Assembly: GCA_028688325.1 (NCBI GenBank)
Contig: JAQTYI010000001.1
Coordinates: 302,620-366,619 of the forward strand
Source of the DNA: Candidatus Portnoybacteria bacterium
GTDB taxonomy: Bacteria > Patescibacteriota > Minisyncoccia > Portnoybacterales > GWB1-42-6
Direction of reading: 5' to 3'
DNA: 64,000 nucleotides
The notes below the pieces were generated by a model. That model did no database searches. It was not told the origin of the DNA and saw nothing but the letters and a program-made list of their open reading frames with translations. Both the position numbers and the translations under genes were made by a program. Position 1 is the stretch's first letter. Each line of letters begins with the position of its first letter. This document shows, one piece after another, positions 785-51,812 of the stretch.

Positions 785-1240
785 TTATTTGGGAATTATT
801 TTAATGCGCCGCTCTTCACCAACCCCCTCCGACTCTGTTTTAACTCCCGGAATATCCATCAGGGTTGTATGAATTATCCGCCTCTCATATGCATTCATGG
901 GCGGTAAATAACAGAAAGCTCCATGCTCGGCCACTTGGCGCGCTAAATTTTTTGCTGAATCCTTCAGTGTATCCAAGCGTTCCTGTTGATAATTATTCAC
1001 ATCCACCGTTAGGCGAACGCCCTCAATAATCTTCTTGCCGGCTAAAAGCCGGGCTAATTGCTGCAGAGCCCTAAGATTATCACCATTGCGGCCGATTAAA
1101 TATCCGGCTTCTTGGCTTTCTATATTAGCCAAAATGCCGCCACCGAGCTCTTCCGACAGCGACACGCGGCCGTCGACACCCACAACGCCGATCAGTCCCT
1201 CGATGACTTCTTTAATTGCCGTCAGTTTTTCTTGTTCCAT
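785..1240 (-). CDS. jag: Jag/KhpB R3H-domain RNA-binding protein (SpoIIIJ-associated)
   Basis: KH/R3H-like translation (GYLIGRNGDNLRALQQLARL...ERRIIHTTL). Sits downstream of yidC in the conserved rpmH-rnpA-yidD-yidC-jag origin cluster. Confidence 0.8.
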   Translation of the reverse strand: MEQEKLTAIKEVIEGLIGVVGVDGRVSLSEELGGGILANIESQEAGYLIGRNGDNLRALQQLARLLAGKKIIEGVRLTVDVNNYQQERLDTLKDSAKNLARQVAEHGAFCYLPPMNAYERRIIHTTLMDIPGVKTESEGVGEERRIKIIPK

Positions 1241-1370
1241 GCCAGGAAGTAGAAATTCAACTATATTTAATTTATCAAGATAAGTTAAATATAGTTAATT
1301 CACTTGTTTTTATAATTTTTGCCAGACAGTTCAAATAAAAATAAACTGTTGAATTTTCACTTCCTGGCGT
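1238..1370. mobile_element. MITE copy a. Terminal inverted repeats CATGCCAGGAAGTAGAAATTC / GAATTTTCACTTCCTGGCG flank about 90 bp of AT-rich core
   Basis: 22-bp terminal inverted repeats read directly. The jag ATG abuts the left repeat. The right repeat encodes the last codons ARK and the TGA stop of yidC. Confidence 0.8.
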
Positions 1371-2073
1371 GTTTTTTAATTACAAAATATTGTTGTATCA
1401 CTCCGGCCAAGGTCGTCACCACCCAATAAAGAGTGAGCCCGGCCGGCAAGCGCCAGGCGATAAAAACGGTGAAAAGCGGCATAAAATAAAGCATTTGCTT
1501 GTTAAGGGCGGCGCTGAAATCCGAGCCCTGGCCGGCCGCTGGCGGCTGGAAGCGGACCATCATTTTTGATTGCCAGAAAGTGAAAGCGCCGGCTAAAATA
1601 GCCAGCGCCACATTGGCATTAGCCAAACTTATCAACCCCAAAAACATCGGGTCCACCTGGCCTGGACTTGCGACAAAAGAATAAAGGGCATTTAAACTTT
1701 CGGGTTTTAATCCATTCAAAAAAACTTGATACAGCGCGATAAGAATGGGCAACTGTATCAAAAGCGGCAAACAACCGGAGGCCGGGTTGATGTTGTTTTT
1801 TTTATACAACTCCATCAGGGCTTGGGATTGCTTCACTTTGTCGGTTGAATATTTATTCTGGAGTTCTTTTATTTGGGGGGCGAGCGCCCCCAGGGATTTT
1901 TGTGAAGTAATGGCTTTTTGGTTCAATGGATACAGTATCAAGCGGATGATGACGGTAAGTAAAATTATTGCCACACCAAAATCGTGCGGCGGTATCGCGT
2001 TATATAAAAAAATAAGTCCGTTGAACAACGGCCGGTAAAGCACCTCATTAAACGCTATAGTGATGATATTCAT
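1357..2073 (-). CDS. yidC: Membrane protein insertase YidC (short Oxa1-type). The start was moved to the internal ATG so yidD is not overlapped
   Basis: Translation MNIITIAFNEVLYRPLF...AWRLPAGLTLYWVVTT... with a conserved YidC C-terminal region. Operon context. Confidence 0.85.
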   Translation of the reverse strand: MNIITIAFNEVLYRPLFNGLIFLYNAIPPHDFGVAIILLTVIIRLILYPLNQKAITSQKSLGALAPQIKELQNKYSTDKVKQSQALMELYKKNNINPASGCLPLLIQLPILIALYQVFLNGLKPESLNALYSFVASPGQVDPMFLGLISLANANVALAILAGAFTFWQSKMMVRFQPPAAGQGSDFSAALNKQMLYFMPLFTVFIAWRLPAGLTLYWVVTTLAGVIQQYFVIKKHARK

Positions 2074-2078
2074 AGGTG

Positions 2079-4360: not shown

Positions 4361-4600
4361 TTAATAAGATGTTTATAAGTATGTTGATATATGTGTTGGT
4401 ATATTAATGAATAATTAATTAACAAAAACCTGATATCTTTTTTTAAAAAAAGAAGTTAATAATTATTAAATAAATAACAAGTGCTTATAAACATTCAAGG
4501 TTTATTGATTCCTTATAACCGTATTGATAAAAAAAGTTTTTCCACAAAATAATCAACACCTAATAATAACAATTTTTTTATTAATTAAGTATTTAAGAGT
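4361..4600. promoter_or_regulatory. Very AT-rich dnaA-dnaN spacer. Candidate DNA unwinding element or second oriC module
   Basis: 240 bp at more than 80% A+T with degenerate DnaA-box-like TTTTCCACA (about 4536-4544). Classic oriC placement between dnaA and dnaN. Confidence 0.45.
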
Positions 4601-12039: not shown

Positions 12040-12684
12040 TTACTTCAAATTTTTTAAATAATCGGAAGTTATTTCGGACAAAGACATAATTAGATTATTG
12101 GTCGGATAAAGTCCGTTTTTATCTTTGACTAAGCCGATGCAAAACATATTGGCGCGTTTGGCTCCCTCCATGCCGTTGATGCCGTCTTCAATGACCACGC
12201 AATCTTGCGGCGCAACGCCTATCTTTGAAGCGGCCAGTAAAAAGCTTTCCGGGTCCGGCTTACCATTGGCCACCATATCGCCGCTCACGACCGCGCTAAA
12301 ATAAGGAGTTATTTTTAATGCTTCAAGAACGGAATGCACATAATCCGAAGTTGATGCCGAAGCCAAAGCCAGGGGATATTTTTCTTCGTATAATCTTTTT
12401 ATCAAGTCGACTGAGCCGGGGATCTCGTCAACTCCTAAAGAGGCGAGTTTAGCCATTTCTCCCCATTTTTCTTTCATCAATCCGTCCAAATCATAAGCCG
12501 CGCCCTGTTGTTTTAGTAAAACATCAAAAAATTCCCCGGTTCTGACCCCGGAATATTTTCGGGTGAGTTCTTCCGGCGTGATATTTACGCCGAATCGGTT
12601 CAGTATTTTAGCTTCAACCGCAGCGTGGAGTTTTTGGGTGTCGGAGATAACCCCGTCCATGTCAAAAATGATTCCTTTTACCAT
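12040..12684 (-). CDS. HAD-IA family hydrolase (beta-phosphoglucomutase-like)
   Basis: N-terminal DxD motif IIFDMDGVISDT. HAD motifs II to IV. Confidence 0.8.
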   Translation of the reverse strand: MVKGIIFDMDGVISDTQKLHAAVEAKILNRFGVNITPEELTRKYSGVRTGEFFDVLLKQQGAAYDLDGLMKEKWGEMAKLASLGVDEIPGSVDLIKRLYEEKYPLALASASTSDYVHSVLEALKITPYFSAVVSGDMVANGKPDPESFLLAASKIGVAPQDCVVIEDGINGMEGAKRANMFCIGLVKDKNGLYPTNNLIMSLSEITSDYLKNLK

Positions 12685-17875: not shown

Positions 17876-18997
17876 TCAAGAAAGTGAATTTAGCAATACG
17901 GCTATTTTTTCCTTGGCATCTTTGGCGGCCATACCGGCCATTTTTACCAACAGGCGGTCGTTTTTAACGGAACCGCCGATCTCCAGGCATAGTTTTTGCA
18001 GATGCTCGGCTCTCTTGCTTTGTGCCAAGATATAAGTAGAGCCGTTATCGTCGGGCCACAAAATTATGGCCAGGTTGATTGAAGGAAAGAGGTCGTAGAT
18101 TTCGTCCAGAACGAACGGCAGGTCTTTGGCCGAAGTGCCGGTGGCGATAAAATCTTCGCGCTGGGCGAATATCCAGGCGATCTTTTCCCGATCGTCAAAT
18201 TCCAGGCGGCCCAAGAGCCGGCCCCAAAGCTTTAAGCAATTGAGCGGTTTGGTTTTGTATAGATTTTTAACGATGGTTTCTTGTTCCGCTCCCTTGATTA
18301 TCAAAAGCGACGCCAAATTCAGCGCTTGGGGAGTGGTTCGGGAATTTTGCCAGCTGTGCGTTTTAACGATGAGCCCCGCCAGCAGGAGCGTAGCAATATT
18401 GGCATCAATCGAATTTGGCGCGAGTCCCTCGATAAGTCCGACAACAATTTCCGCGCAGGCCGCGGCCGTCGGCTCGACCAAGTTCACTTCGCCGAAATAT
18501 TCATTGCCCGCCTTGCAATCGATGTTCAGGATGGATTTGTTGAAAAAAAGTTCGGTGTTGCTGTTAAAAATATCGCCCAGCGATTCCAGGTCCGGCGCGT
18601 CGATGACGATTATCAGGTCGTAGTAGAACGGGCCCGGTTCCAGCTTGATATCGCGCTGTTCTATTTTTTGCGGCGTGGCCAAAAATATTTTCAAGACGCT
18701 GCCTTCCGCTTCGTAGCGCAAGCGAGAAATCTTATTTTGGCTGGTATCCACGGAAATAACAAAATCGCGCAAAGAGGTCAGTTTATTTCTCAAGGCATCG
18801 ATGCCAGGCAGAAAGGCCAGCTTGTCCGGCGCGGCTTCCTGAGAGGCGAGTTCAACTTTTTTGCCGAGTTTTTTGAGAGTCGCTTCCAGCGCCAGAGCCG
18901 AGCCCAAAGAGTCGGCATTCAACGACTCAGGCAGAGCAATCAGGATATTTTTACTTTTCTGGATGAGGTCGATGGCTTGTTGAAGGGGGGTGAGCAT
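17876..18997 (-). CDS. DHH-family phosphoesterase (NrnA-like)
   Basis: NrnA-like N-terminus NILIALPESLNADSLGSALAL. DHH/DHHA1 architecture. 373 aa. Confidence 0.7.
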   Translation of the reverse strand: MLTPLQQAIDLIQKSKNILIALPESLNADSLGSALALEATLKKLGKKVELASQEAAPDKLAFLPGIDALRNKLTSLRDFVISVDTSQNKISRLRYEAEGSVLKIFLATPQKIEQRDIKLEPGPFYYDLIIVIDAPDLESLGDIFNSNTELFFNKSILNIDCKAGNEYFGEVNLVEPTAAACAEIVVGLIEGLAPNSIDANIATLLLAGLIVKTHSWQNSRTTPQALNLASLLIIKGAEQETIVKNLYKTKPLNCLKLWGRLLGRLEFDDREKIAWIFAQREDFIATGTSAKDLPFVLDEIYDLFPSINLAIILWPDDNGSTYILAQSKRAEHLQKLCLEIGGSVKNDRLLVKMAGMAAKDAKEKIAVLLNSLS

Positions 18998-19132
18998 ACC
19001 GGGTAGTAGAAATTTGACTTAATAATTAATTCCTGGATGGTTTATTAATTTCTATGCATTTACCGAGGTTGTAATAATTTGGCAGAATCTACATATAAAA
19101 AATAACCAGTCAAATTTTCACTACCCGGCATG
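18995..19132. mobile_element. MITE copy b
   Basis: Terminal inverted repeats CATACCGGGTAGTAGAAATTTGAC / GTCAAATTTTCACTACCCGGCATG. The left repeat abuts the DHH start codon. Confidence 0.8.
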
Positions 19133-26769: not shown

Positions 26770-27027
26770 TTACTTGTTCAGCGCTTTCATCAGTCGGGAT
26801 TTTTTCCGAGCAGCGGCGTTCTTTTTAATAACGCCTCGTTTGGCCGCTTTATCGATGGCCTGATAAGCAACGGAAATCATTTTTTTAGCTTCGTCTTTCT
26901 TGCCGGCCAGCATCAATTTGCTGATTTGTTTGAGTGCGTCTTTCATTGTCTTTTGCCGCTTCACATTCAAAACGCGGCGTCTCTTGGCCTTGCGCAGTTC
27001 TTTCTTGGCTGATTCTTTGATTGGCAT
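26770..27027 (-). CDS. rpsT: 30S ribosomal protein S20
   Basis: MPIKESAKKELRKAKRRRVLNVKRQ... The 5' extension in the ORF track is a translation of the MITE terminal repeat. Confidence 0.85.
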   Translation of the reverse strand: MPIKESAKKELRKAKRRRVLNVKRQKTMKDALKQISKLMLAGKKDEAKKMISVAYQAIDKAAKRGVIKKNAAARKKSRLMKALNK

Positions 27028-27161
27028 ACCAGGTAGTAGAAATTCGGCTATATTCATAAATCCAGCGGATCTAATCAATCTTACCGATTTCTATGGTTTT
27101 ATAAAATTTTGTCAGACAATGATAATTTAGCTAAACAGCCGAATTTTCACTACCTGGCATG
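27025..27161. mobile_element. MITE copy c1
   Basis: CATACCAGGTAGTAGAAATTCGGC ... GCCGAATTTTCACTACCTGGCATG. The left repeat donates or abuts the rpsT ATG. Confidence 0.8.
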
Positions 27162-27240
27162 GTTTGGTTGTTGATTTATAATTATTTGTTTTCGGTTCAG
27201 AGGTTGAATAGAATATAGCAGATAAATTACTTTTTGGCAA

Positions 27241-27310
27241 GCCAGGAAGTGAAAATTCGGCAGTGACTTAATTTGCCGCCATGGCGGCAGCCGAATTTCT
27301 ACTTCCTGGC
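27241..27310. mobile_element. Mini-MITE copy c2 (two terminal repeats around a 26-bp palindromic core)
   Basis: GCCAGGAAGTGAAAATTCGGCAG / GCCGAATTTCTACTTCCTGGC. The right repeat encodes the last codons ARK and the TAG stop of uvrB. Confidence 0.75.
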
Positions 27311-29453
27311 AAGTTTTTTTAATTTGTCTATTTCTTCTTTCAGCCGCATGGACTCATCAAATTGCAGATTGCGGTTGGCCAGGTCCATTTTAAATTGCAG
27401 TTCGCGGATATATTCTTTGAGATAGTTCGTGTCCTCCGAAGCTTTAGCGAAGGAGGATCTGCCGGTTTTCACTTCCGCCAGAACTTCCACAATGCTTGCT
27501 CGAATATCCTTAGTTATGGCTTGTGGCGAGATGCGATGTTTTTTATTGTATTCTTCCTGTGTCTGGCGGCGGCGGTTGGTTTCATTGATGGCGCGGCGCA
27601 TCGATTGGGTTACCTTATCTGCATACAAGATTGCCTGGCCATCAAGGTGGCGCGAAGCGCGACCGATGGTCTGGATAAGAGTGGTTTCATTGCGCAAAAA
27701 TCCCTCTTTGTCCGCGTCCAGAATCGCCACGAGCGAAACTTCGGGCAAGTCCAGCCCTTCGCGCAAAAGATTTATGCCGACCAACACATCAAATTCTCCT
27801 TGGCGCAATTTTTTCAAGATTTCCGGCCTCTCCAGCGTCTTGACCTCTGAGTGCAGGTAAGCCGTCTTGATCTTTTCTTCTGTCAGATATTCGGCCAGAT
27901 CCTCGGCCATTCTTTTGGTGAGAGTCGTTACCAGCACCCGCTGTTTTTTTGCCACGCGTTTTTTGATCTCTTTAATGAGATCGGGGATCTGGTTCTGGCT
28001 GGGGCGGACATCGATTTTCGGGTCCAAAAGCCCCGTCGGACGGATGAGTTGTTCAATCACATATTTATTTGTCATCCCGGGTCACCCGCCTCGCCCGACG
28101 AGCGTGCGAGTCGAGGCGGGTGACCCGGGATCCAGATTTGGAAATTTGGGCCTGGATTCCCGCTTCCAGTTTACCCCGCACTTGATGCGGGGCGGGAATG
28201 ACAGAAGAGAAAGGTTTACAATTCACGGCTTGTGTTTTGGCGGTCTCGTATTTCCCCGGCGTGGCGGAGGTATAAATAACCTGGCTTATCTTTTTTTCAA
28301 ATTCCGGGAATTTCAGCGGCCGGTTATCCAGGGCGCTGGGCAAGCGGAAGCCAAAATCAATGAGCGTTTGTTTGCGCGAACGGTCGCCTTCATACATCGC
28401 GCCGATCTGGGGCACGCTCATATGCGACTCATCAATTATCATCAAGAAATCATTCGGATAATAATCCAGCAGGGTGGAGGGGGCGGTGCCGCCTTGGCGC
28501 AGTTCCAGGTGCCGGGAATAATTTTCAATGCCGTGGCAATAGCCGACTTCTTTTAACATTTCCAAATCATAATTGGTGCGCCGGCTCAGGCGCTCGGCTT
28601 CCAAACTTTTGCCATCTTTCCCCAATCTTTTTAATTGTTCGTCCAGTTCGGCACGGATGTTGGCGATGGACGCGTCTATTTTTTTCTGCGGCGAAACCCA
28701 AAATTTCGCCGGATATATCCTGGCGGAATTTATTTGCTCATCTTGTCCGGCAAAGATGTCTTTTAAGGATCGCAGGGGCTTTGCGCTGATGCGGGTTATT
28801 TTATGGGCTTCAAATTCGGCCTTAATTGTCAACTCGCCCGTGGCCAGCCATATCTCAACGATGTTGCCGCGCACCCGGTATGTGCTGCGTTTAAAATCAA
28901 TATCGGAGCGAGTATATTGCAATGCGGCCAGCTGGCGCAAAAAAACTTGCCGGGAAATTTCTTGGCCTTGTTTTATCTCCACGCTCAATCCCTGATAGTC
29001 ACCGGGCGAGCCGATGTTGTAGATGCAGGAAACCGACGCCACCACGATAGCGTCTTCGCGCGTCAGCAAAGATTGCGTGGCGGCATGGCGCAGCCGGTCC
29101 AGCTCCTCGTTTATCTTGGCGTCTTTTTGTATGTAGGTGTCAGTGGTGGGAATATATGCTTCCGGCTGGTAGTAGTCATAATAGGAGACGAAATAGTTTA
29201 CGGAATTATTTGGAAAGAATTCTTTGAATTCCTGGTATAATTGCGCGGCCAAGGTTTTGTTGTGAGAAATTATCAGCGTGGGCTTTTGCACTTTTTCAAT
29301 GACATTGGCCATAGTGAAAGTTTTGCCGCTGCCGGTCACGCCCAAAAGCACCTGGTGCTTGGCGCCGGCGTTCAGATTTTTGACTAATTTATTTATGGCG
29401 TTCGGCTGGTCGCCTGTCGGCTTGTATGGGGCGTGGATTTTGAATTGCGGCAT
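27299..29453 (-). CDS. uvrB: Excinuclease ABC subunit B (UvrB). Reading frame broken by a roughly 140-bp family-1 repeat at about 28068-28207, leaving two overlapping ORFs (27299-28075 and 28065-29453). Possible pseudogene or sequencing frameshift
   Basis: N-terminal ORF has helicase motifs [10 protein letters not shown] and DESH plus the beta-hairpin region. C-terminal ORF resumes at [13 protein letters not shown] and ends with the UvrB C-terminal coiled coil. The N-terminal ORF reads through the repeat and stops in a different frame. Confidence 0.8.
28068..28207. repeat. Family-1 repeat inserted inside uvrB
   Basis: TTGTCATCCCGGGTCACCCGCC...CCCGCACTTGATGCGGGGCGGGAATGACAGAAG. About 140 bp, not a multiple of three. 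Confidence 0.8.
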
Positions 29454-30158: not shown

Positions 30159-31343
30159 ATGGATAAACAAACTTGGAATAAATTTGTTTTAGAAAATGGT
30201 GGTAGCTTTTTGCAATCCTGGGAATGGGGCGAATTTCAAGAAAACATTGGCAGGCGTGTTTTTAGGTTTTTGCATTGTCATCCCGAATTTATTTCGGGAT
30301 CTGATTCAGAGGCCCTGAAACAAGTTCAGGGCGACAAAGGGGGCTGGCGAGCTCAATTCATTGCTAACAAACTACCTGGTGTTAATAAATTTTATTGGCA
30401 TTGTCCGCGCGGGCCGGTTTTGGCCAATGGCGATGAGCAAATGGCAAATAGCCAAATACGGAAAATCATAGACGCGGTTAAAAAATCAGCGGATAAAAAA
30501 GTTATATTTTTTCGTTTTGGGCCCGAGTGGCCTCTTGATTGTCATTCCGGGCTTGACCCGGAATCCAGATCTGGATCCCGCATCGAGTGCGGGATGACAG
30601 AAAAGGATTTAAAAAATATTGGCTTCAAGCAGCTATCATACGATATCGAGCCCTCACAAACGCAAATTTTAGATATTTCAAAAACCGAAGACGAATTGTT
30701 GGCGCAGATGCACGAAAAATGGCGCTACAATATCCGCCTGGCGCAGAAGAAGGGTGTGCAGATAAAATTCACGCAGTCAGAGTGCGTGAATTTTGAGTAT
30801 TATTTTGAGGAATTTTATCGGCTGGTGAGCCAAGGCACTTCGGAGCGCAACAATATCAAGCATCATCCGAAAGAATATTATAGAAAGCAGTTGAAAATTG
30901 GCGCTAAATCTCCCCTGACCCCTCTTTACGAAAGAGGGGAAGACCCTCCTTTTGTAAAGGAGGGCGAGGGAGGATTTAGAGAAACATTATTTGTGGCCGA
31001 ATATGAAGGCAAGGTTATTGCGGCAAATATTGTCGTGATCTTTGGCAATCGCGCCACTTATCTTCACGGCGCCACAAGCAGCGAGCATCGCGAAGTTATG
31101 GCGCCGCATCTTTTGCAATGGGAGCAGATAAAATATGCCAAAGCGCAGGGCTGTTCGGAATACGATTTCTGGGGAGTTGTGAACGAACACACCTTGGACA
31201 GACGCGGCAAATCCTGGGAGGGCTTCACTCGCTTCAAAAAGGGCTTTGGCGGTAAAGAAGCGAATTACATCGGTTATTGGGATTATCCATTTGACAAGAA
31301 GTGGTATTCGTTATATAGATTAGTGCAAAAGTTTAGGAGATAA
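30159..31343 (+). CDS. FemAB-family peptidoglycan bridge aminoacyltransferase-like protein, carrying two in-frame repeat insertions
   Basis: FemAB N-terminus (WNKFVLENGGSFLQSWEWGEFQ). Family-1 insert translated as DCHSGLDPESRSGSRIECGMTEKD. Family-2 insert translated as SPLTPLYERGEDPPFVKEGEGGFRE. Confidence 0.7.
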   Translation: MDKQTWNKFVLENGGSFLQSWEWGEFQENIGRRVFRFLHCHPEFISGSDSEALKQVQGDKGGWRAQFIANKLPGVNKFYWHCPRGPVLANGDEQMANSQIRKIIDAVKKSADKKVIFFRFGPEWPLDCHSGLDPESRSGSRIECGMTEKDLKNIGFKQLSYDIEPSQTQILDISKTEDELLAQMHEKWRYNIRLAQKKGVQIKFTQSECVNFEYYFEEFYRLVSQGTSERNNIKHHPKEYYRKQLKIGAKSPLTPLYERGEDPPFVKEGEGGFRETLFVAEYEGKVIAANIVVIFGNRATYLHGATSSEHREVMAPHLLQWEQIKYAKAQGCSEYDFWGVVNEHTLDRRGKSWEGFTRFKKGFGGKEANYIGYWDYPFDKKWYSLYRLVQKFRR

Positions 31344-31353
31344 TTCGCATGGT

Positions 31354-31474
31354 TTGTCATCCCGGGCTTGACCCGGGATCCAGAGCTTGTCCCCGCGAAA
31401 GCGGGGATCCATTGGGCCTGGATTCCCGCTTCCAGCTTACCCCGCACTTGATGCGGGTCGGGAATGATAGAAGT
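31354..31474. repeat. Family-1 repeat, intergenic
   Basis: TTGTCATCCCGGGCTTGACCCGGGATCCAG ... GGATTCCCGCTTCCAG...CGGGAATGATAGAAG. Confidence 0.8.
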
Positions 31475-34085: not shown

Positions 34086-35039
34086 TTAATTTTGCAGTTG
34101 TTTGTTTATTTGTTTTTTGATTTTTGGCGGGCAATCAATGTCTTGTCTTTTTTTCAAATAGCCGAGCAGAGGGGTTAAGAGCTGGTTAGATATCTTTTTC
34201 TCAATGCCCATGGCGTAGGCGATAATGCCAAAGACCTGTTTTTCGGAAACGGAATTATCCATTTTTGCCCGGCCGATCATTCCGCGAAACCGCCTTATTT
34301 TTTTAGGCGGAATTTTAGGTTTTTTATCAACGATATTTATTCCTGTAATGCGCAAGGCGCCTTTTTTTATTGAACCATAGCGGGTTTTTTCGGGATTGAT
34401 CTTGAATCCAGCTTCTTCCAGCTTCTTGGCGATAATATTCTCAAAGCTTTTTGGTATTTTGACGCTGGAACTGAAAGTCAAGTCATCCACATAACGCGAA
34501 TAGCGCAATCGATGTTCAGCCACCTTCTGGTTGCTAAAAGATAAGTCAATATTCAGCAGATTTGTGGCTCCCAGAAGAGCATTAAATATGGCCAATGAGG
34601 TTGGCGCTCCTTGCGGAAGTTGGTTGCGGAAGGTGGTTAATTTGGTTAGAATCTTGGCCAGTTGCGGCGAAGCGTTCATTATTCTGAAAAACCAGTAAAC
34701 CATTTTATCGTCAACGGTCGGATAAGCGTTCTTTATGTCGATAGTAATAAGGTATTTGCTTTGTTTGTGGACAAGGGCGTTAGTCCGAGCGGATTTTTTG
34801 GCTATTCCGCCATGCGCTTGAGACGGGATGCAAAAAGGCAATTCTTTTAACAAGATTCGCTGAATTTTTTTCAGCGGTTCTTCGGGTGCCGCAATCTCGC
34901 GCTTACTGCCGTCTGATTTTTTCTTGTACCAGACACGATAATGGCTCTTAATGTTTTGTGACAACATTAGTAATTCCGTAGTGTCGAGATCGAACATTTT
35001 AGAAAAATTCTCTAAAGAAATTTTATTTTTCTTTTTCAT
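34086..35039 (-). CDS. Reverse transcriptase, retron-type (317 aa)
   Basis: Reverse transcriptase motifs: A (ITIDIKNAYPTVD), B' (LPQGAPTSLAIFNALL), C (YSRYVDDLTFSS, the YxDD box), D (GFKINPEKT) and an ITG/VTG-like segment (LRITGINIV). Strong Shine-Dalgarno sequence AAGGAGG. Compact retron size. Confidence 0.75.
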   Translation of the reverse strand: MKKKNKISLENFSKMFDLDTTELLMLSQNIKSHYRVWYKKKSDGSKREIAAPEEPLKKIQRILLKELPFCIPSQAHGGIAKKSARTNALVHKQSKYLITIDIKNAYPTVDDKMVYWFFRIMNASPQLAKILTKLTTFRNQLPQGAPTSLAIFNALLGATNLLNIDLSFSNQKVAEHRLRYSRYVDDLTFSSSVKIPKSFENIIAKKLEEAGFKINPEKTRYGSIKKGALRITGINIVDKKPKIPPKKIRRFRGMIGRAKMDNSVSEKQVFGIIAYAMGIEKKISNQLLTPLLGYLKKRQDIDCPPKIKKQINKQLQN

Positions 35040-35398: not shown

Positions 35399-35782
35399 CT
35401 AATGCGTGTTGATTATTTCGCCGGCCATTTGCGTGGCTTCGGCGAGAAGCTTTTTGGGAATATCGTCTATCCCGAAGCCATCGCTGTTGGGCGAGGTATA
35501 GATGACTTGCGGGCCCTTGCCGTAATCGGCGAAGGTGATAACAATATCTAGCACGGAAAGGGTGGCGGATTTTTCTCGACAGGACTCCATGATAAGCCGA
35601 ATCTTTTTGTTATGGAGCCGCAGAGAAAGAATATCGCCGCCTTTTTTGTCAAATTCCCTGAACTGGCGAATGGCCTCCGGGCTTATATGGCCGGCTCCTT
35701 CGCCATCGCAATTAGGGCACCGGCCGACTCGTTGGCTGGGATACCGATAACCGCACTTGAGGCAGAACCTATCTTTGCTCAT
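35399..35782 (-). CDS. Zinc-ribbon protein with an acidic C-terminal domain, possibly TOPRIM- or NYN-like. Candidate retron-associated effector
   Basis: CLKC...CPNC zinc ribbon at the N-terminus. C-terminal IRLIMESCRE...LDIVITFADYGKG...SPNSDGFGIDDI with conserved acidic residues. Immediately upstream of the retron locus on the same strand. Confidence 0.4.
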   Translation of the reverse strand: MSKDRFCLKCGYRYPSQRVGRCPNCDGEGAGHISPEAIRQFREFDKKGGDILSLRLHNKKIRLIMESCREKSATLSVLDIVITFADYGKGPQVIYTSPNSDGFGIDDIPKKLLAEATQMAGEIINTH

Positions 35783-35909
35783 AAGACCCTCCTTGTGGGT
35801 GGTATGGGTAGCTGATAAGAACTATATCTGATAGTTATATTATATCAAAACGCTATGAATATGTCAATAGTAGCGCTAAAATACCGGAAAGTGTATAATA
35901 TATCGGTAT

Positions 35910-36221
35910 GCCAGGTAGTAGAAATTCGACAGCGATTATGTTCTATTATGTTTATATTTTAGAGAGTTTAAAGAATAAGGAATTGTATGTCGGTTACACG
36001 GGTGATTTAAACAAGAGAATAAAAGAACATAATCGCGGATTGGTTTTTTCTACAAAACCATATCTGCCTTGGCTAATTATATTTTACGAGGCCTATAGGA
36101 GCGAAAAAGACGCCAGAAGGAGAGAGGCGTATTTAAAGACCAGCCAAGGCAGCAGATTGTTAAAAAGAATGCTTAAAGAATATTTTTATAATAAAGAATA
36201 AGTCGAATTTTCACTACCTGG
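35910..36221. mobile_element. Autonomous-looking member of the MITE family: terminal inverted repeats enclosing a GIY-YIG nuclease gene
   Basis: Left repeat GCCAGGTAGTAGAAATTCGACAGCG. Right repeat GTCGAATTTTCACTACCTGG. The same repeats as the non-coding MITE copies. Confidence 0.75.
35938..36201 (+). CDS. Small GIY-YIG nuclease family protein (87 aa) carried inside the repeat-flanked element
   Basis: MFYYVYILESLKNKELYVGYTGDLNKRIKEHNRG...R...AYLKT...LLKRML. GIY...YVG and catalytic R/E/N spacing. Confidence 0.75.
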   Translation: MFYYVYILESLKNKELYVGYTGDLNKRIKEHNRGLVFSTKPYLPWLIIFYEAYRSEKDARRREAYLKTSQGSRLLKRMLKEYFYNKE

Positions 36222-36348
36222 AATGAAAAACTACGCTTCAGCCAGGGCGGGAAGGGGCAAAACGACCTATCGCACGCCGAGCGTATTTAAATATCAGAAG
36301 TGCCGGAAGGTGGAGAAAATTAAAATGGTTAATAAAAATATTAAACAA

Positions 36349-36486
36349 TTGTCATCCCGGGCCTGACCCGGGATCCAGGCCCTGAAGCCCAACCGTCGCT
36401 AAAGCTTTGGCGAGGCAAGCAAGTTCAGGGCGACAAAAAACCTGGATTCTCCCCGCACTTGATGCGGGGCGGGAATGACAAAATGA
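36349..36486. repeat. Family-1 repeat ending inside the annotated 5' end of the next gene
   Basis: TTGTCATCCCGGGCCTGACCCGGGATCCAGG ... CCCCGCACTTGATGCGGGGCGGGAATGACAAAATGACAA. Confidence 0.8.
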
Positions 36487-37871
36487 CAATCATGAAACTA
36501 CATTTTCACGGCGGGGCGGAGGCGGTAACAGGCGTCAATTATCTGCTGGAAACCGGGAAATCAAAGATTTTGGTTGATTGCGGTTTGTTCCAGGGGCCGA
36601 AGGAGTTGGAAGCCAGGAACTCAAAGCCATTCGAGTACGATGCCAAAACCATCGACGCGGTGATAATCACGCACTCGCATCTTGATCATGTTGGCCGCTT
36701 GCCCCAGCTCATCGACGCGGGATTTCGCGGCAAGATATTTGCCACGCCTCCGGCGGTTAATTTCACGCGCCTTATTTTGGAAGACAGTGTGCGGGTTTTG
36801 GCGGAAAAAGCCCAGCATGCGGGAGTCGTGCCGATGTTTTCCCAAGAAGAAGTCAACCAGGTGATGAGCCAGTTTGTGCCGGTTGATTATTATAAAAAAA
36901 CCAAAGCCGCGGAAGATATTGAATTTACATATCATAACGCGGGTCATATTCTGGGCTCGGCCATCGTTGAGCTTGACTCCGAAGGAAAGAAAATAGTTTT
37001 TTCCGGTGACTTGGGTCATCCGCCCGCGCCATTGTTGCGCGCGCCGGATTATTTAATCTGCGCCGATTATGTGCTGGTGGAGTCAACTTATGGCGACCGA
37101 AACCACGAATCGCCGGAAGAAGGCGAAGAAAGAATAGAGAATGTCATCGAGGACACCATTTCCAAGGGCGGCGTCTTGATGATTCCCAGCTTTGCCATGG
37201 AACGCACCCAACAGCTGCTTTATCATATAAATGACCTGATCGAACACAAGCGCATTCCGAGGATACCTGTTTATATTGATAGCCCCTTGGCTACGCATAT
37301 CACTGAAGTTTATAAAAAATATCCGCAATACTATAACAAAGAGGCGGCTTCCGAGATTGACTCGGGCGATGATGTTTTTAATTTTCCAGGACTGCGTTTC
37401 ACTCTTTCTTCCAAGGAATCAAAAGAAATAAATGATTCGCCGTCTCCCAAAGTTATCATCGCGGGGTCGGGCATGAGCAACGGCGGCCGCATCGTGCATC
37501 ATGAAGTGCGGTATCTGAGCGACCCGAAAAACACCTTACTGATGGTGGGCTATCAGGCCGAAGGTACGCTGGGCCGGCGCATCGCCGACGGGCAGAAAAG
37601 GGTTGTTGTTCTGGATCAGGAAGTGGAGGTGCGGGCAAAAGTGGAAAAAATTTCCGGCTACTCGGCGCACGCCGACCAGTTTTATCTGATGGACTGGATA
37701 AAGAGTTTCAAAAAAATCGCTTGCGGCGATGGCAGCGGCAAGCATAAATTGACGAAAGTTTTTGTGGTGCAAGGCGAAGCCAAACCGGCCGCGGCTCTGG
37801 CCAGTTTGATCCGCGATGAGCTTGGCATTACTACGGAGGTGCCAAAGCTCGGTGAAACGGTTGAGCTTTGA
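36483..37871 (+). CDS. Beta-CASP metallo-beta-lactamase-fold ribonuclease (RNase J / CPSF-like)
   Basis: HxHxDH motif (ITHSHLDHVGRLPQL). Beta-CASP motifs. C-terminal RMBL-like region. The start was trimmed to the ATG after the repeat. Confidence 0.75.
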   Translation: MTIMKLHFHGGAEAVTGVNYLLETGKSKILVDCGLFQGPKELEARNSKPFEYDAKTIDAVIITHSHLDHVGRLPQLIDAGFRGKIFATPPAVNFTRLILEDSVRVLAEKAQHAGVVPMFSQEEVNQVMSQFVPVDYYKKTKAAEDIEFTYHNAGHILGSAIVELDSEGKKIVFSGDLGHPPAPLLRAPDYLICADYVLVESTYGDRNHESPEEGEERIENVIEDTISKGGVLMIPSFAMERTQQLLYHINDLIEHKRIPRIPVYIDSPLATHITEVYKKYPQYYNKEAASEIDSGDDVFNFPGLRFTLSSKESKEINDSPSPKVIIAGSGMSNGGRIVHHEVRYLSDPKNTLLMVGYQAEGTLGRRIADGQKRVVVLDQEVEVRAKVEKISGYSAHADQFYLMDWIKSFKKIACGDGSGKHKLTKVFVVQGEAKPAAALASLIRDELGITTEVPKLGETVEL

Positions 37872-37911
37872 TGGACTTAACCGTGTTTTTAAATTAAAAT
37901 AACATTATTAT

Positions 37912-38042
37912 GCCAGGCAGTGAAAATTCGGCAGTTTATACGGATTATCATTGGTTGGTAAAGATAGATAAAACTATAGAGTTTGGCATCATTAATTAAG
38001 TTCGTTGAATTTAATTAATATAGCCGAATTTCTACTGCCCGG
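37912..38042. mobile_element. MITE copy e (inverted orientation)
   Basis: GCCAGGCAGTGAAAATTCGGCAG ... GCCGAATTTCTACTGCCCGG, then T and the ATG of the downstream gene. Confidence 0.8.
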
Positions 38043-38043
38043 T

Positions 38044-38649
38044 ATGGAAGAAATAGCCAAAAGCCATTTGAAATACAAGATCTGCGTTTCGGGCGCGGCG
38101 CGCACGGATTGTTGCTCCGAAGATGCAATGGATAAGACCAAGGAATTGGGGCGCGAGATAGTGCGCCAGAACGGCATTGTGGTCACCGGCGCCACCACGG
38201 GGGCTCCCTACTGGGCGGCCATTGGCGCCAAAGAAGAGGGCGGTATTTCCATCGGATTCTCGCCCGCGTCTTCCGAGGCCGCGCATGTAAAAACATACCA
38301 CCTGCCCATAGATTATTTTGATATGATTGTTTACACGGGCTTTGAATATTCCGGCCGCAATTTGATATTGACCCGGGCGGCCGATGCGGTGGTCTTTGTC
38401 TGCGGGCGGCTGGGCACGCTGAATGAATTCACCATCGCCTTTGAAGATAAAAAGCCCATTGGCGTTCTGACGGGCACCGGCGGCATGGCCGACGAGATAA
38501 AAGAAATAGTGGCCAAAGGAAACCGCGGTCCGGGAAAAATCGTTTATAACGACAATCCGAAAGTTTTGGTGGAAAAAGTTATAGAAATGATAAAAAAAGA
38601 AAAGGACATCGAGGTTGAGTTTGGAACGGGCAAAGGAGGGGGAGAATAA
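38044..38649 (+). CDS. TIGR00725/LOG-like Rossmann-fold protein
   Basis: KICVSGAAR...GIVVTGATTG...GGISIGF...VVFVCGRLGTLNEF. The start codon abuts the MITE repeat. The extension the track places upstream is a translation of that repeat. Confidence 0.6.
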   Translation: MEEIAKSHLKYKICVSGAARTDCCSEDAMDKTKELGREIVRQNGIVVTGATTGAPYWAAIGAKEEGGISIGFSPASSEAAHVKTYHLPIDYFDMIVYTGFEYSGRNLILTRAADAVVFVCGRLGTLNEFTIAFEDKKPIGVLTGTGGMADEIKEIVAKGNRGPGKIVYNDNPKVLVEKVIEMIKKEKDIEVEFGTGKGGGE

Positions 38650-44181: not shown

Positions 44182-44313
44182 AATAGAATAGAGCGTCTGA
44201 GTTCAATGCTCCGATCGGCAAAATATTGGTGCGATATTTTTGGTAAGTCAAAATACTCCCGCGAGGAGTTTTTTTGTTTGCAAAAATGGTAAAATGTGCC
44301 ATATTTAAACCAT

Positions 44314-44441
44314 GCCAGGTGGTGAAAATTTGACGCTTTAATTATAAATATGCGAGTATCTGGTAATATAAAAAGTAGGGAATAATACAAGGATTAATAA
44401 TTTTTTAATGAGTAATTCTTGGTCAAATTTCTACTACCTGG
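44314..44441. mobile_element. MITE copy f
   Basis: GCCAGGTGGTGAAAATTTGACGC ... GTCAAATTTCTACTACCTGG, then T and the ATG of the downstream gene. Confidence 0.8.
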
Positions 44442-44442
44442 T

Positions 44443-45558
44443 ATGAAAAAACAGGTAAAAGCGCTGGTTTTGCTCTCGGGCGGCTTGGATTCTATCCTGG
44501 CCGTCAAATTGTTATTGGAGCAGGGAATCATTGTTGAGGCGGTGAATTTTCGCACTAATTTTTGCGGGCCGAGCAAGGCGCGCCTCGCCGCAAAAATGCT
44601 CGGAGTAAACTTAAGAGAGGTGAATATCAGGAAAGATTTTTTGCCCATTTTGAAACACCCCAGGCACGGCTACGGCACGGGCTTGAATCCTTGCATCGAT
44701 TGCCACGCTTTGATGCTGAAAAAAGCCGGGGAAATTATGCGTGCGGAGGGATTTGATTTCATTGCCACGGGCGAGGTGCTGGGCGAGCGGCCAATGAGCC
44801 AACATAAAAAGGCCTTGGATATTGTGGCTAAAGACGCGGATATTGTCGGCTATCTTTTGCGGCCGCTGTCGGCTAAATTGCTTGAGCCGACCATCGCGGA
44901 GAATGAAGGGGTGGTGGATAGGGAAAGATTATTGAATATTTCCGGCCGGAGCCGCAAAATACAGATGGCACTGGCCGAGCAATACGGCATCAAAGAATAT
45001 CCGACCCCTGCCGGCGGCTGCGCGCTGACGCAAAAGGGTTTTGCGGACCGCTTGCGCGAGCTGATGGCCAACAAGTCGGATTTTAATTCAGACGATGTGG
45101 ATCTGGTGGCGATAGGGCGGCATTTTTGGGTCGCCGTTTCTTGTCATCCCGGACTTGATCCGGGATCCAGTATCTCGAATGAAGACATGGATTCCCGCTT
45201 TCCCTCCTTCGCCTGCGGCTTTGGAAGGGCGCGGCGCGGGAATGACAGAAGAGAGAGCGGTGTCCAAATTATTCTCGGCCGCAACCAGGAAGAAAATAAT
45301 ATTTTAGAAAACATAGCCGGGCAAGGTGATATTTTGGTTGCGCCGGATAATTTTGTCGGACCTCTGGCTTTGGTCCGCGGCGCTACTTTTTGTCATCCTG
45401 AACTTGGTTCAGGATCTCAAGACAAGGGATCCCGAAACGAGTTCGGGATGACAGAAAAAGATATAATTGACAAAGCCAAGGAATTAATCTTGCAATTTTC
45501 GCCCAAAGCGAAGGACTTGGGAAAAGAGGATTTAAGGTTTAAGATTAAATTAATATGA
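44443..45558 (+). CDS. PP-loop ATP pyrophosphatase (ThiI/MnmA-like tRNA sulfurtransferase family) with two in-frame family-1 repeat insertions
   Basis: SGGLDS PP-loop. NPCIDCH. ATGEVLGERPMSQ. Inserts translated as CHPGLDPGS...GNDRRE and CHPELGSGSQDKGSRNEFGMTEKD. Confidence 0.55.
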   Translation: MKKQVKALVLLSGGLDSILAVKLLLEQGIIVEAVNFRTNFCGPSKARLAAKMLGVNLREVNIRKDFLPILKHPRHGYGTGLNPCIDCHALMLKKAGEIMRAEGFDFIATGEVLGERPMSQHKKALDIVAKDADIVGYLLRPLSAKLLEPTIAENEGVVDRERLLNISGRSRKIQMALAEQYGIKEYPTPAGGCALTQKGFADRLRELMANKSDFNSDDVDLVAIGRHFWVAVSCHPGLDPGSSISNEDMDSRFPSFACGFGRARRGNDRRESGVQIILGRNQEENNILENIAGQGDILVAPDNFVGPLALVRGATFCHPELGSGSQDKGSRNEFGMTEKDIIDKAKELILQFSPKAKDLGKEDLRFKIKLI

Positions 45559-47831: not shown

Positions 47832-47894
47832 TTGTCATCCCGCATTTGATGCGGGATCCAGGCCCCGGATTCCCGTTTTCACGGGAATGACAGG
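47832..47894. repeat. Family-1 repeat (short form)
   Basis: TTTGTCATCCCGCATTTGATGCGGGATCCAGGCCCCGGATTCCCGTTTTCACGGGAATGACAGG. Confidence 0.8.
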
Positions 47895-49262: not shown

Positions 49263-49799
49263 TTAACGGGATTTGCTGATTAACATATAAAATCCTCTGG
49301 GTTCTTTGGTGATGGGCTGGTCGATGATCGTCGGAATCTGGATATAATTTTTAAAATCTTCCAATTTTTCTTTGGCGAGGTGGCCGAAGGCCTTTTCTCG
49401 TCCCCGCAAAACTATGGAGATTCTGGCGCGGTCGCCCTTTTCCAAGAATTTCTGCGTTTGGGCCGCTTTCATTTCCAGGTCGTGTTTGGCGATATTGAAG
49501 CTCAGCCGGATATTTTTAATTTCAACCTTATGGGTCTTGGTCATCTCCTTGGCTTTCTTTTCTTTCTGGTACAGGAATTTGCCGTAGTCGATTATCTTGC
49601 AGACCGGCGGAACGGCTTTGTCCGTTATCTCCACCAGGTCCAGCCCCCGATCATACGCCAGGGCCAGCGCGTCGGCGGTTTTCATCACGCCAAGCTGCAC
49701 TCCTTTTTCATCAACCACGCGAACTTCCGCCGCACGGATGAAACCGTTGATGCGATTCTGTGGCTGCCTCGGCTGGTTAAAAAATGGTTTTCTTATCAA
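49263..49799 (-). CDS. infC: Translation initiation factor IF-3
   Basis: INGFIRAAEVRVVDEKG...VCKIIDYGKF..., IF3 N and C domains. Confidence 0.9.
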   Translation of the reverse strand: MIRKPFFNQPRQPQNRINGFIRAAEVRVVDEKGVQLGVMKTADALALAYDRGLDLVEITDKAVPPVCKIIDYGKFLYQKEKKAKEMTKTHKVEIKNIRLSFNIAKHDLEMKAAQTQKFLEKGDRARISIVLRGREKAFGHLAKEKLEDFKNYIQIPTIIDQPITKEPRGFYMLISKSR

Positions 49800-50065
49800 G
49801 GTTTGGGGTTAGTGATTAAATGATTTGCCAGTTGTTTTTTCAAAAATTTTCTGCCCGATCCGCTTTTGAGGAATTTTTCTCTGCCCAGTGCATCAAATTT
49901 ATTCAAATATAATTCCGCGTATATCAATTCCCAGTTATCCTTCTTGCTCGTATACGGGGATTTTTTATATTTATGTTCTTGCAGTCGTTGCTTTAGATTC
50001 GAAGTAAAACCAATATACCAGCTTTTATCATTTTGGTTTTCAAGAATATATACAACGTAATGCAT
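49796..50065 (-). CDS. Small GIY-YIG nuclease family protein (second copy) lodged between the tmRNA 3' end and infC
   Basis: MHYVVYILENQNDKSWYIGFTSNLKQRLQEHKYKK... Start-stop overlap ATGA with infC. Confidence 0.7.
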   Translation of the reverse strand: MHYVVYILENQNDKSWYIGFTSNLKQRLQEHKYKKSPYTSKKDNWELIYAELYLNKFDALGREKFLKSGSGRKFLKKQLANHLITNPKP

Positions 50066-50822: not shown

Positions 50823-51275
50823 TTATTCAATTTTTCCTCTCACCGCCCGCCGGATGCGCCGGTCCGATTCGCGCTTGCCGATGATATCCCGTTTGTCGAT
50901 GGTCCTTTTGCCGCGGCCCAGGGCGAACTCCAACTTGATTTTACCCGATTTATTATAAACCCGAATAGGCACCAAAGTCAACCCGGTCTGCTTCGTTGAG
51001 CCGATAAGCGAGCGGATCTCGTTCTTATGGAGCAGAAGCTTGCGCGAGCGGGTGGGGCTGTAGTCGGCCGGGACATTGCCCGCTTGGTAGGGGGCGATAG
51101 TGGCGTTTAACAGCCACGCTTCTTCGCCCTTGATGACCACAAAAACCCCTTGGAGCGAAATATGGCCCCCGCGCACGGATTTGACTTCTTGGCCGCTCAA
51201 AACCAGCCCTGCTTCGTAGGTTTCCAAAAAAGCGTAGTCATAGCTGGCTTGCCGGTTGAAAGCGTAGTCGGACAT
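50823..51275 (-). CDS. smpB: SsrA-binding protein SmpB
   Basis: ...IAPYQ...RKLLLHKNEI...TLVPIRVY...KIKLEFALGRGKR..DKR..., an SmpB signature. The ATG abuts the MITE repeat. Confidence 0.9.
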   Translation of the reverse strand: MSDYAFNRQASYDYAFLETYEAGLVLSGQEVKSVRGGHISLQGVFVVIKGEEAWLLNATIAPYQAGNVPADYSPTRSRKLLLHKNEIRSLIGSTKQTGLTLVPIRVYNKSGKIKLEFALGRGKRTIDKRDIIGKRESDRRIRRAVRGKIE

Positions 51276-51408
51276 ACCGGGTAGTGAAAATTTGATATAT
51301 TAATTATTGTTCTATGCACTTGCCAAGTAGTATAAATTTCGGAGGGTATTGAACTATAGTATGCGCTGATATAAGGGATACCCAATCGAATTTCTACTAC
51401 CCGGCATA
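51273..51408. mobile_element. MITE copy g
   Basis: CATACCGGGTAGTGAAAATTTGATAT ... ATCGAATTTCTACTACCCGGCAT. Confidence 0.8.
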
Positions 51409-51416
51409 TTAAGTTT

Positions 51417-51545
51417 ACCCCGTAGTAGAACTTCGATTCGTGTGATTTAATAAGATTTATTAACTTATTTACCTGCCATAATTTGTTTGGCTACTCTTAT
51501 TCTAACCGAAAAACATAAAATATCGAAGTTTCACTACGGGGTTTT
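51417..51545. mobile_element. MITE copy h (divergent subfamily, CCCCG instead of CCGGG termini)
   Basis: ACCCCGTAGTAGAACTTCGAT ... ATCGAAGTTTCACTACGGGGT. Both arms carry the same divergent terminus, so the two ends stay complementary. Confidence 0.7.
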
Positions 51546-51607: not shown

Positions 51608-51812
51608 TTGTCATTCCCGCCTGCTTCGCCAAAGCTCCAGCGAGGCGAGCAAAAGCGGGATCCAGGCCCTATTTGAATTGTCATCCCGCACTTGATGCGG
51701 GATCCAGGTCTTTAAAGTTGTCATCCTGAGCGAAGCGAAGGATCTCTGGCGAATGCCAGATTAGTTGCCCGCATACGCGGGAGATTCCTCGTTGCACTCG
51801 GAATGACAAAGA
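51608..51812. repeat. Three tandem family-1 repeat units upstream of argS
   Basis: TTGTCATTCCCGCC...GGGATCCAGG / TTGTCATCCCGCACTTGATGCGGGATCCAGG / TTGTCATCCTGAGCGAAGCGAAGGATC...GGAATGACAAAG. Confidence 0.8.

Follow-up and report, generated by a model that had tools for sequence, protein, structure and literature searches.

We describe a family of small mobile DNA elements found in a 64,000-nt stretch of contig JAQTYI010000001.1 from Candidatus Portnoybacteria (positions 302,620 to 366,619; hereafter the window). Nine copies lie in the window, and one of them encloses a gene for an 87-aa GIY-YIG nuclease. The elements are a family of small hairpin-forming mobile DNA that is widespread in Patescibacteria, the ultra-small bacteria of the candidate phyla radiation (CPR); they insert with duplication of a short target, prefer start codons, and carry the GIY-YIG gene as their exclusive cargo. 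On balance we favor a mechanism in which the nuclease reads the folded, mismatched ends of the element on single-stranded DNA and makes the cuts that mobilize it, with host enzymes completing the insertion.

We searched the window with a 24-nt consensus of the terminal repeats (arms), allowing up to three mismatches and using 100 shuffles as the control, and then with a looser core pattern. The consensus gave 15 matches (none in the 100 shuffles), and the looser pattern brought this to 18 arms, which make up nine elements, or about one copy per 7 kb. Eight are non-coding (68–130 bp), of which seven have cores of 124–130 bp and one is a short form of 68 bp. The ninth is the coding element, with a core of 311 bp. 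All core coordinates run from CC to GG and exclude the target duplication. Loci numbered with an L, such as L134, are related metagenome and assembly contigs outside the window.

A first-pass annotation of the window, made from the sequence alone, had already recognized the family, and this is indeed a true inverted-repeat element family with one coding form and many miniature forms. By the arm pattern search its nine coordinate pairs are correct to within 1–4 nt, and the pair at 35911-36221 does enclose the GIY-YIG open reading frame (ORF) that it reported. Its count of ten repeats was a miscount. It gave the other copies about 90 bp of AT-rich interior with a TTGNCA..TAAACN core; the short copy at 27242-27309 departs from this, having a GC hairpin inside, and the core is present but confined to a Portnoybacteria subfamily. 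That annotation did not include the targeting of start codons, the host ATG and promoter being captured, or the very wide spread in Patescibacteria, all of which were found here.

The repeat length of 22–24 bp given at first turned out to be a 20-bp arm plus a 4-bp target-site duplication (TSD); the outer CAT[A/G] and [C/T]ATG that had been counted as repeat lie outside the element. We gathered 54 non-redundant copies from the window and from loci elsewhere. The 4 nt outside the arms form direct, not inverted, repeats, which are identical in 32 of the 54 copies and have at most one mismatch in 45. These flanks co-vary in direct orientation (CATA, TATG, TTTT, CAAA, CAGG, CATT, CTTG and TATA), and the duplication is 3–5 bp long, mostly 4 bp.

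Exact empty and filled alleles occur at four sites in related genomes, and the empty alleles run on without a break and have the 4 nt only once. At the SLOG gene, L134 is empty (..AATATA TATG GAAGAA..) and L133 is filled (..AATATA TATG [element] TATG GAAGAA..); the same TATG is also empty in L131, L130 and L128, and filled in the window. The small ORF behind the coding element has an empty site in L130, L134, L136, L138 and L146 (TATAAT-N6-ATGAAAAA..) and a filled one in the window, L127 and L141, where L141 reads ..GCATG [arm-linker-GIY-YIG-arm] CATG AAAAA... The rpsT site is empty in L170 and L171 and filled in the window and, independently, in L172, with differing interiors. At uvrB, the last codons are uninterrupted in L170 and L171 and are split in the window by the 68-bp copy, with a CTTG duplication; this insertion changes the end of the protein only, from ..KKLAKK-stop to ..KKLARK-stop. 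Copies have also landed inside other copies. The coding element of L121 holds two nested miniatures, one within an arm (duplication AAAA) and one in the linker (duplication CTGCG), and further nested insertions are found in L043 and L125. Given the empty and filled alleles and the nesting, the duplication is a real copy of 3–5 bp of target sequence, and the elements are mobile. This presence/absence polymorphism also disposes of the objection, raised in the first-pass annotation, that the repeats might sit at fixed orthologous positions in all relatives.

Every arm pair longer than 300 bp contains a GIY-YIG gene and no other content, and no arm pair encloses another gene among the 54 non-redundant copies and all stray arms. 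Conversely, arms frame every close homologue whose DNA was read (L109, L121, L122, two in L123, L141/L142 and L127), so that the association first seen in a single copy recurs elsewhere. In many bacterial classes the gene occupies the interval between the arms to the nucleotide, with a 7-nt linker at one end and a stop codon touching the arm at the other. L123 has two diverged coding copies within 6 kb. Across classes the arm-associated clade is 70–88% identical, versus about 40–52% for paralogues that lack arms. Within the clade, identity stays at about 73–79% whatever the divergence of the hosts, as expected of an element that moves horizontally.

The arms of each copy form an imperfect hairpin. 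The A arm (20 nt) is CCRGGNAGTAGAAATTYGRC and the B arm is its near-complement, GYCRAATTTTCACTNCCYGG (reverse complement, CCRGGNAGTGAAAATTYGRC). We analyzed pairing in the 47 distinct arm pairs among our copies, which come from many Patescibacteria lineages. Of the 20 stem positions, 10 show compensatory double changes (66 cells), a number reached in none of 500 shuffles, and slid registers dropped to 19–49% paired. The co-variation within copies that had been noted by eye is therefore significant. At the same time, stem position 10 is A opposite C and position 11 is G opposite T in all 47, so that the systematic asymmetry of the two ends (TAGTAGAAA versus TAGTGAAAA), also noted at first pass, is invariant in the window and in the other genomes. 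Single-strand folds of the copies have z scores of -3.4 to -7.9 (for DNA, -3.35 for copy 18999-19128 and -7.9 for the short copy 27242-27309), with a 2x2 internal loop at the A.C/G.T mismatch. Independent decay of duplex ends would not keep such a pattern. It suggests that selection acts on a folded single strand of DNA or RNA, in which the mismatch would serve for recognition or to mark polarity. A scan of the window at Rfam gathering thresholds gave no family at the arms or elements, only the tmRNA and one tRNA, and E-value scans of the elements gave only microRNA-precursor look-alikes far below threshold.

The dominant target is TATG or CATG, that is (T/C)ATG, and the elements prefer start codons. 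An ORF of at least 60 codons starts at the duplicated ATG beside the A arm in 28 of the 54 copies, and in 26 of the 27 that are flanked by CATA. In the window the targets are jag-like, DHH, rpsT, SLOG, ThiI-like and smpB genes, whose Pfam domains start at residues 2–18. By a rough estimate, chance alone would make only about one in four intergenic TATG sites a start codon, so we consider the bias to be intrinsic or strongly selected. There is an orientation bias as well. Where the duplicated ATG opens an ORF of this length, the B arm comes first and the A arm lies by the gene in 28 copies, and the order is the opposite in 2. Coding copies have the same bias: the 54 homologous nuclease genes with the translated arm in frame (see below) divide into 45 E-type (B arm first) and 9 R-type (A arm first). 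TANNNT boxes are most frequent at a gap of exactly 6 nt in front of the upstream ATG (8 of 36 sites versus a background of about 2), and several targets have a -10 box 6–7 nt before the ATG, for example TATAAT-N6-ATG or TAAACT-N7-ATG. Several of the targets are the +1 position of leaderless-type promoters. Many genes in the window have no Shine-Dalgarno sequence and carry a TATAAT-like box a few nucleotides before the ATG, such as 54477-55925(-), 12040-12684(-) and 59356-60495(+). This suggests that leaderless or very short-leader mRNAs are widespread in this organism.

In the coding element, the order is TSD, A arm (35911-35930), a 7-nt linker (AGCGATT), the GIY-YIG ORF and the B arm (36202-36221). 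The arms enclose the linker and the 87-codon ORF and nothing further, which leaves no room for a promoter of the element's own. Together the arm (20 nt) and linker (7 nt, NGCGATT) put the nuclease in frame with the duplicated host ATG. From that ATG at 35908, an in-frame ORF runs over 35908-36201 and would encode 97 aa (MPGSRNSTAI plus the protein). The stop codon of the nuclease touches the distal arm, and the host ATG follows after 21–24 nt. In every case read, the nuclease gene is co-directional with the host gene behind it, be it the small ORF, a prolyl isomerase (L121) or an aminoacyl-tRNA synthetase (L123). The small ORF of the window, 36223-36366, encodes 47 aa that match no Pfam family. 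In relatives it has TATAAT 6 nt before its ATG, a leaderless-type promoter, and in the window this TATAAT is at 35893-35898. We read this as promoter capture, in which the host gene is made the second cistron, and possibly also as capture of the start codon by the nuclease gene. The same extension is common in the databases: among the best 120 of 602 homologues detected (70–88% identity), at least 54 have an in-frame ATG in front of the translated arm, MPGS[E/R]NS.., and some homologues also end in KSNFHYLG, the other arm translated.

The 87-aa protein is a GIY-YIG domain alone (Pfam GIY-YIG spans residues 3–72), and homologues are 86–105 aa long. An alignment of 39 homologues has a mean identity of 80% per column, with Y4, Y6, R27, H31 and the C-terminal YLKT.QG.RLLKR.LKEYFY invariant and Y17, G19 and E51 nearly so. 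Because Y6, Y17, R27 and H31 match the catalytic positions of I-TevI, the nuclease is probably an active enzyme. Solved structures gave only distant matches, to UPF0213 and Slx1, and the relatives found on plasmids and phages are likewise distant (35–38% identity).

Complete arm pairs are present in metagenome-assembled genomes (MAGs) labelled Parcubacteria, Portnoybacteria, Saccharibacteria, Doudnabacteria, Yanofskybacteria, Nealsonbacteria and Komeilibacteria, and a diverged form of the element is in a MAG labelled Omnitrophica. Outside these groups, the genome scan gave lone arms that we attribute to chance, many of them in the biotin carboxylase motif NFYFLEMN. We rejected carriage by phages, as IMG/VR contained no arm copies and no relative of the nuclease; its single arm match lies within a coding region and is a chance match.

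We infer that the nuclease is the transposase, or at least the mobilizing enzyme, of the family. By analogy with the Ssn nucleases discussed below, it would recognize the folded arms with their mismatch in single-stranded DNA, and a single-stranded hairpin would be its substrate. It would then cut the element free, or cut so that it is copied, and open the target; ligation and gap filling by the host would create the target duplication. The same nuclease would mobilize its own element and the non-coding derivatives of 68–160 bp. The coding form would borrow the transcription start of the host, and perhaps its translation start, and the host gene would presumably stay expressed as the next cistron. 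As a speculation, the preference for gene starts might come from access to DNA that is melted at initiating promoters, which would suit a single-strand-specific enzyme and leaderless targets, although it does not cover every site. Taken to its full extent, this proposal makes the 87-aa GIY-YIG nuclease the only protein encoded by an autonomous transposon of 311 bp, which would be the smallest known, and a new class of prokaryotic transposase, with mismatched single-stranded hairpin ends, insertion at start codons or +1 positions, and hijacking of the host promoter and ATG. We offer that full version tentatively, as somewhat less likely than not.

Several points weigh against the nuclease as the mobilizing enzyme. 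GIY-YIG enzymes cleave DNA by hydrolysis and are not known to catalyze strand transfer, so that joining and repair by the host must be assumed. Leaderless promoters are seen at only part of the targets, with the yidC-jag site being internal to an operon and the rpsT site having a short leader. Translation from the captured ATG is not obligatory and an internal start may serve, since the internal Met of the nuclease is invariant in the 39 homologues and, in some copies, the linker has 8 nt or the upstream ATG is mutated. Finally, interiors are only 62–75% alike within a lineage and arms about 95% alike, which implies that most copies are old and that the arms are under selection, possibly for a host function.

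This last point leads to the idea of a domesticated host system of the Ssn/SRM type, rather than a transposon that mobilizes itself. Here the nuclease would cut folded arms in incoming or replicating single-stranded DNA and so modulate recombination or natural transformation, or act in genome maintenance, while the repeats spread slowly by other routes and are kept for their benefit to the host. Patescibacteria are generally thought to be naturally competent, the greater conservation of arms than of interiors would fit long-term selection, canonical SRM hairpins are present in the same window, and a recombination breakpoint between the window and L127 lies at the element 37913-38042. The closest characterized proteins do act in this way in Neisseria (PMC11893778). 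However, clean insertions with target duplication at four sites, together with nesting, show that the unit itself is actively inserted, and the Ssn model leaves the insertions, the start-codon targeting and the promoter capture without explanation. The uniform identity of the nuclease clade across diverged hosts is also what horizontal movement would give. We therefore regard a purely domesticated system as unlikely, while giving it real weight.

It is also conceivable that the short copies are ordinary miniature inverted-repeat transposable elements (MITEs), moved in trans by a conventional DDE transposase from elsewhere in the genome, with the GIY-YIG gene as a trapped passenger or hitch-hiker. 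DDE transposases classically leave a target duplication, and terminal inverted repeats with a duplication of fixed length are their hallmark. As we inspected about 8–12 kb around each copy, a distant transposase gene would be missed. Yet none of the arm pairs, including all stray arms, holds a gene other than the GIY-YIG one, and a passenger would not be expected to fit between the arms to the nucleotide in so many bacterial classes. Compensatory co-variation around an invariant mismatch is typical of enzymes that read folded single strands, and not of duplex end recognition. A transposase in trans thus seems to us quite improbable. Least credible of all is a conserved regulatory module that does not move, such as a structured 5' leader or small RNA of the host genes. 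The position of the distal arm directly before the start codons of housekeeping genes, the pairing kept by compensatory changes and the promoter-like boxes in some interiors would agree with it. Against it, close relatives have the orthologous genes without the element, continuous across one copy of the 4 nt, other copies lie inside a coding region (uvrB) and inside other copies, no Rfam family matches, and there is no conserved promoter position relative to the A arm. We give this explanation almost no credence.

The closest known system is that of the Ssn proteins, which are single-domain GIY-YIG nucleases of about 94 aa (Chenal et al. 2025, Nat Commun, PMC11893778). Their genes are flanked by hairpin repeats (NTS/SRM) that are also dispersed, a layout called insertion-sequence-like, and the authors speculated that NTS-ssnA-NTS is a domesticated insertion sequence (PMC11893778). 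Ssn binds the hairpin repeat and cuts only single-stranded DNA, and it still cuts a hairpin that is supplied as two oligonucleotides (PMC11893778). The elements share with Ssn a single-domain GIY-YIG protein of about 90–100 aa (87 aa here, with no extra domain), a gene with the repeat on either side and many more copies of that repeat dispersed elsewhere, and a repeat that is read, or in our case would be read, as a folded structure with built-in orientation. The first-pass annotation knew of no transposon with this architecture; that is outdated for a tiny GIY-YIG gene with dispersed hairpin repeats, which has been known since 2025, and stands for this particular element, which our literature searches did not find described in Patescibacteria.

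The nuclease matched a gene on an Azospirillum plasmid that is flanked by textbook SRM doublets. A profile comparison (hhalign) of the element clade with this SRM-flanked clade gave 99% probability and an E-value of 5e-19 over 67 core residues at 37% identity. By BLASTP the nuclease matches the Azospirillum clade with E 9e-12, and UPF0213 proteins in the PDB match about as well (E 1e-5). The C-terminal third is unlike in the two clades, YLKTSQGSRLLKRMLKEYFY in the elements versus RLKKWNRDWKIRLIEEHNPDW in Azospirillum. We also searched for the SRM motif as a regular expression, HGTCWYN(0-2)YYVSBRHN(0-5)WNVSBRGN(0-2)RNCYNB. It found seven canonical SRMs elsewhere in the window (0.5 in shuffles) and four around the Azospirillum gene, and had no match at any element arm, nor in L109 or L121-L123, which rules out that the arms are a variant of the published motif. 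An SRM is a self-contained hairpin of 20–50 nt, while the halves of the element are 30–270 nt apart and enclose a gene or a spacer. Target duplications, empty sites, nesting, start-codon targeting and capture of a host ATG have not been reported for Ssn. As the arms miss the SRM motif while seven repeats of the window fit it, we would call the element a sister system of Ssn/SRM, not a member.

REP/REPIN repeats with their RAYT genes, and IS200/IS605 elements, resemble the family in having a tiny gene flanked by inverted hairpin-forming repeats, many dispersed non-coding doublets, and imperfect palindromes that are recognized as single-stranded DNA, with arms kept by compensatory change. However, their enzymes have the HUH fold, which is unrelated to GIY-YIG, and no HUH domain is present in the element protein. 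IS200/IS605 elements insert beside a fixed tetra- or pentanucleotide without target duplication, whereas our elements do duplicate their target, and REPs are mostly downstream of genes, not on start codons. Miniature elements such as Correia (Neisseria), ERIC and RUP are similar in size (70–160 bp), in their terminal inverted repeats, short duplication and intergenic location, and in possible effects on transcription and mRNA processing of their neighbors. They differ in that they have no cognate GIY-YIG gene, and either no known autonomous partner or a dependence on DDE enzymes. Correia elements duplicate TA, and we know of no family of this type that lands on start codons. The 20-nt terminal inverted repeats, target duplication and empty sites in relatives are shared with classical transposons and MITEs, but the only gene found between the arms is the GIY-YIG nuclease, with no DDE, HUH, serine or tyrosine transposase.

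GIY-YIG homing genes (phage T4 seg and the relatives of I-TevI) are also selfish GIY-YIG genes between host genes. They differ in their large DNA-binding domain, in spreading between alleles by break repair, and in having no inverted arms, target duplication or miniature derivatives; the NCBIfam group I intron endonuclease model scored the nuclease at 21 bits versus a cut-off of 56. Integron attC sites are folded single-strand sites too, with conserved unpaired or mismatched bases that give polarity and a stem that varies by compensation. They are acted on by a tyrosine recombinase and lie at the 3' end of cassettes within an array, rather than dispersed. What is new in the present family is the split hairpin that encloses a gene, the invariant mismatch, the evidence for transposition (duplications, empty sites and nesting), the targeting of start codons with promoter capture, and a distinct protein clade.

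If the nuclease does drive movement, GIY-YIG would join the DDE, HUH, serine, tyrosine and Cas1-type enzymes in prokaryotic DNA transposition, and 311 bp would be a new lower size limit for an autonomous element. The family would also give Ssn an evolutionary context, as a still-mobile relative of a supposedly domesticated insertion sequence. Start-codon insertion with capture of leaderless promoters is an unusual targeting logic, and bears on gene expression in Patescibacteria, where initiation signals are still poorly understood. In such reduced genomes, elements as dense as in this window must affect how operons are built, where genes start and how they are annotated automatically, and the MPGSENS.. 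extension on many GIY-YIG proteins in the databases is spurious or captured. As has been proposed for Ssn, a nuclease of this small size that recognizes a defined hairpin with a mismatch could also be made into a tool for single-stranded DNA.

Other readings of the elements were tried and dropped. They are not a known RNA family, given the lack of Rfam matches. They are not the msr/msd of the neighboring retron-type reverse transcriptase, since the same arms occur nine times and also in genomes without that neighbor. A hairpin that bridges a Shine-Dalgarno sequence to the AUG would need a consistent Shine-Dalgarno sequence upstream of the elements, and there was none. Nor was there a positional peak for a promoter directed towards the A arm; the TTGNCA-17-TAAAC box of some interiors points away from the adjacent gene and is specific to a subfamily, and we assign no function to it. 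Coupled translation from an upstream ORF of the miniature copies was rejected because such ORFs are erratic in length and stop position. The nuclease gene of L121 seemed to have direct rather than inverted arms, and this was resolved as a normal element with two nested miniatures.

Table 1. Copies of the element and associated features in the window. Spans of elements include the TSD or flanks; cores do not.
Feature	Span	Core	Strand	TSD or flanks	Details
Coding element	35907..36225	35911-36221	+	TATG/AATG	At ATG of host ORF 36223-36366
GIY-YIG gene	35938..36201		+		87 aa; Pfam PF01541, E 2.3e-16
Host target gene	36223..36366		+		Conserved 47-aa basic ORF, MKNYASARAGRGKT.. / MKNYASARAGRGKTTYRTPS.., upstream of beta-CASP ribonuclease gene
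Miniature copy	1238..1371	1242-1367 (126 bp)	+	CATG/CGTG	A arm abuts start codon of R3H/KH (jag-like) gene 785-1240(-) (Pfam); yidC ORF 1357-2121(-) now terminates within B arm
Miniature copy	18995..19132	18999-19128	+	CATA/CATG	A arm abuts start codon of DHH-family gene 17876-18997(-) (Pfam)
Miniature copy	27025..27161	27029-27157	+	CATA/CATG	A arm abuts start codon of rpsT (S20) 26770-27027(-) (S20 Pfam match)
Short copy	27238..27313	27242-27309 (68 bp)	-	CAAG/CAAG on + strand	Arms plus GC hairpin; in last codons of uvrB (27299-28075, -)
Miniature copy	37909..38046	37913-38042	-	TATG/TATG	A arm abuts start codon of SLOG-family gene 38044-38649(+) (Pfam)
Miniature copy	44311..44445	44315-44441	-	CATG/TATG	A arm abuts start codon of ThiI-like gene 44443-45558(+) (Pfam); upstream TGcCATATT-N6-ATG, extended -10-like box
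Miniature copy	51273..51408	51277-51404	-	CATA/CATA on + strand (TATG in gene sense)	B arm, not A arm, abuts start codon of smpB 50823-51275(-) (SmpB Pfam)
Diverged miniature	51414..51545	51418-51541	+	TTTA/TTTT	In tandem with copy 51277-51404; arms CCCCG../..CGGGG, both sides changed
SRM hairpin	30571-30599		-		Regular expression match
SRM hairpin	31355-31383		+		Regular expression match
SRM hairpin	45142-45170		+		Regular expression match
SRM hairpin	51679-51707		+		Regular expression match
SRM doublet	36350-36378		+		Degenerate partner 36441-36480
SRM doublet	47833-47861 / 47865-47892		+ / -		

The canonical, Neisseria NTS-like SRM hairpins of the window (TGTCATCCCG..CGGGATCCAG) are a second repeat family, unrelated to the elements. 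One is within the ThiI-like coding region, and one doublet follows shortly after the GIY-YIG element; the window contains no canonical Ssn gene. There is a second GIY-YIG gene in the window, at 49796-50065(-) between the tmRNA and infC, which encodes 89 aa with the same type of C-terminal motif and has no arms. L085 has a 52%-identical paralogue beside a tRNA (4493-4735), also without arms. Such arm-less paralogues may be non-mobile relatives of the element nuclease.

The window and L127 are 98% identical over 5.2 kb, and homology is lost exactly at the miniature 37913-38042, beyond which it resumes at 94% and then 86%. The recombination breakpoint lies at this element (window 37846-38043 versus L127 5364-5489), and L127 carries a different, 55-bp hairpin insert there. 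In relatives the same intergenic regions hold other GC-rich hairpin repeat families (L131, 1860-2260; L130 and L134, upstream of the beta-CASP gene), and these short spaces between genes seem to be hot spots where small insertions of several kinds collect. L125, at about 114-144, has a 31-bp micro-hairpin (CCAGGTAGTAGAGCTGAGCTTCACTACCTGG) that consists of the outer arm halves only; it sits within an arm with a TTTGA duplication, and L123 has it in the same place.

Immediately upstream of the coding element is a retron-type reverse transcriptase, 34086-35039(-) (NCBIfam retron St85 family, E 1e-45), with a 127-aa partner ORF at 35399-35782(-). This neighbor is also found in L127 and L136, and not in most relatives. 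The uvrB gene, 27299-29453(-), reads as two overlapping ORFs (28065-29453 and 27299-28075), from a frameshift or a split gene. A similar split is called in L171, and the closest homologues likewise are without the C-terminal UVR domain.

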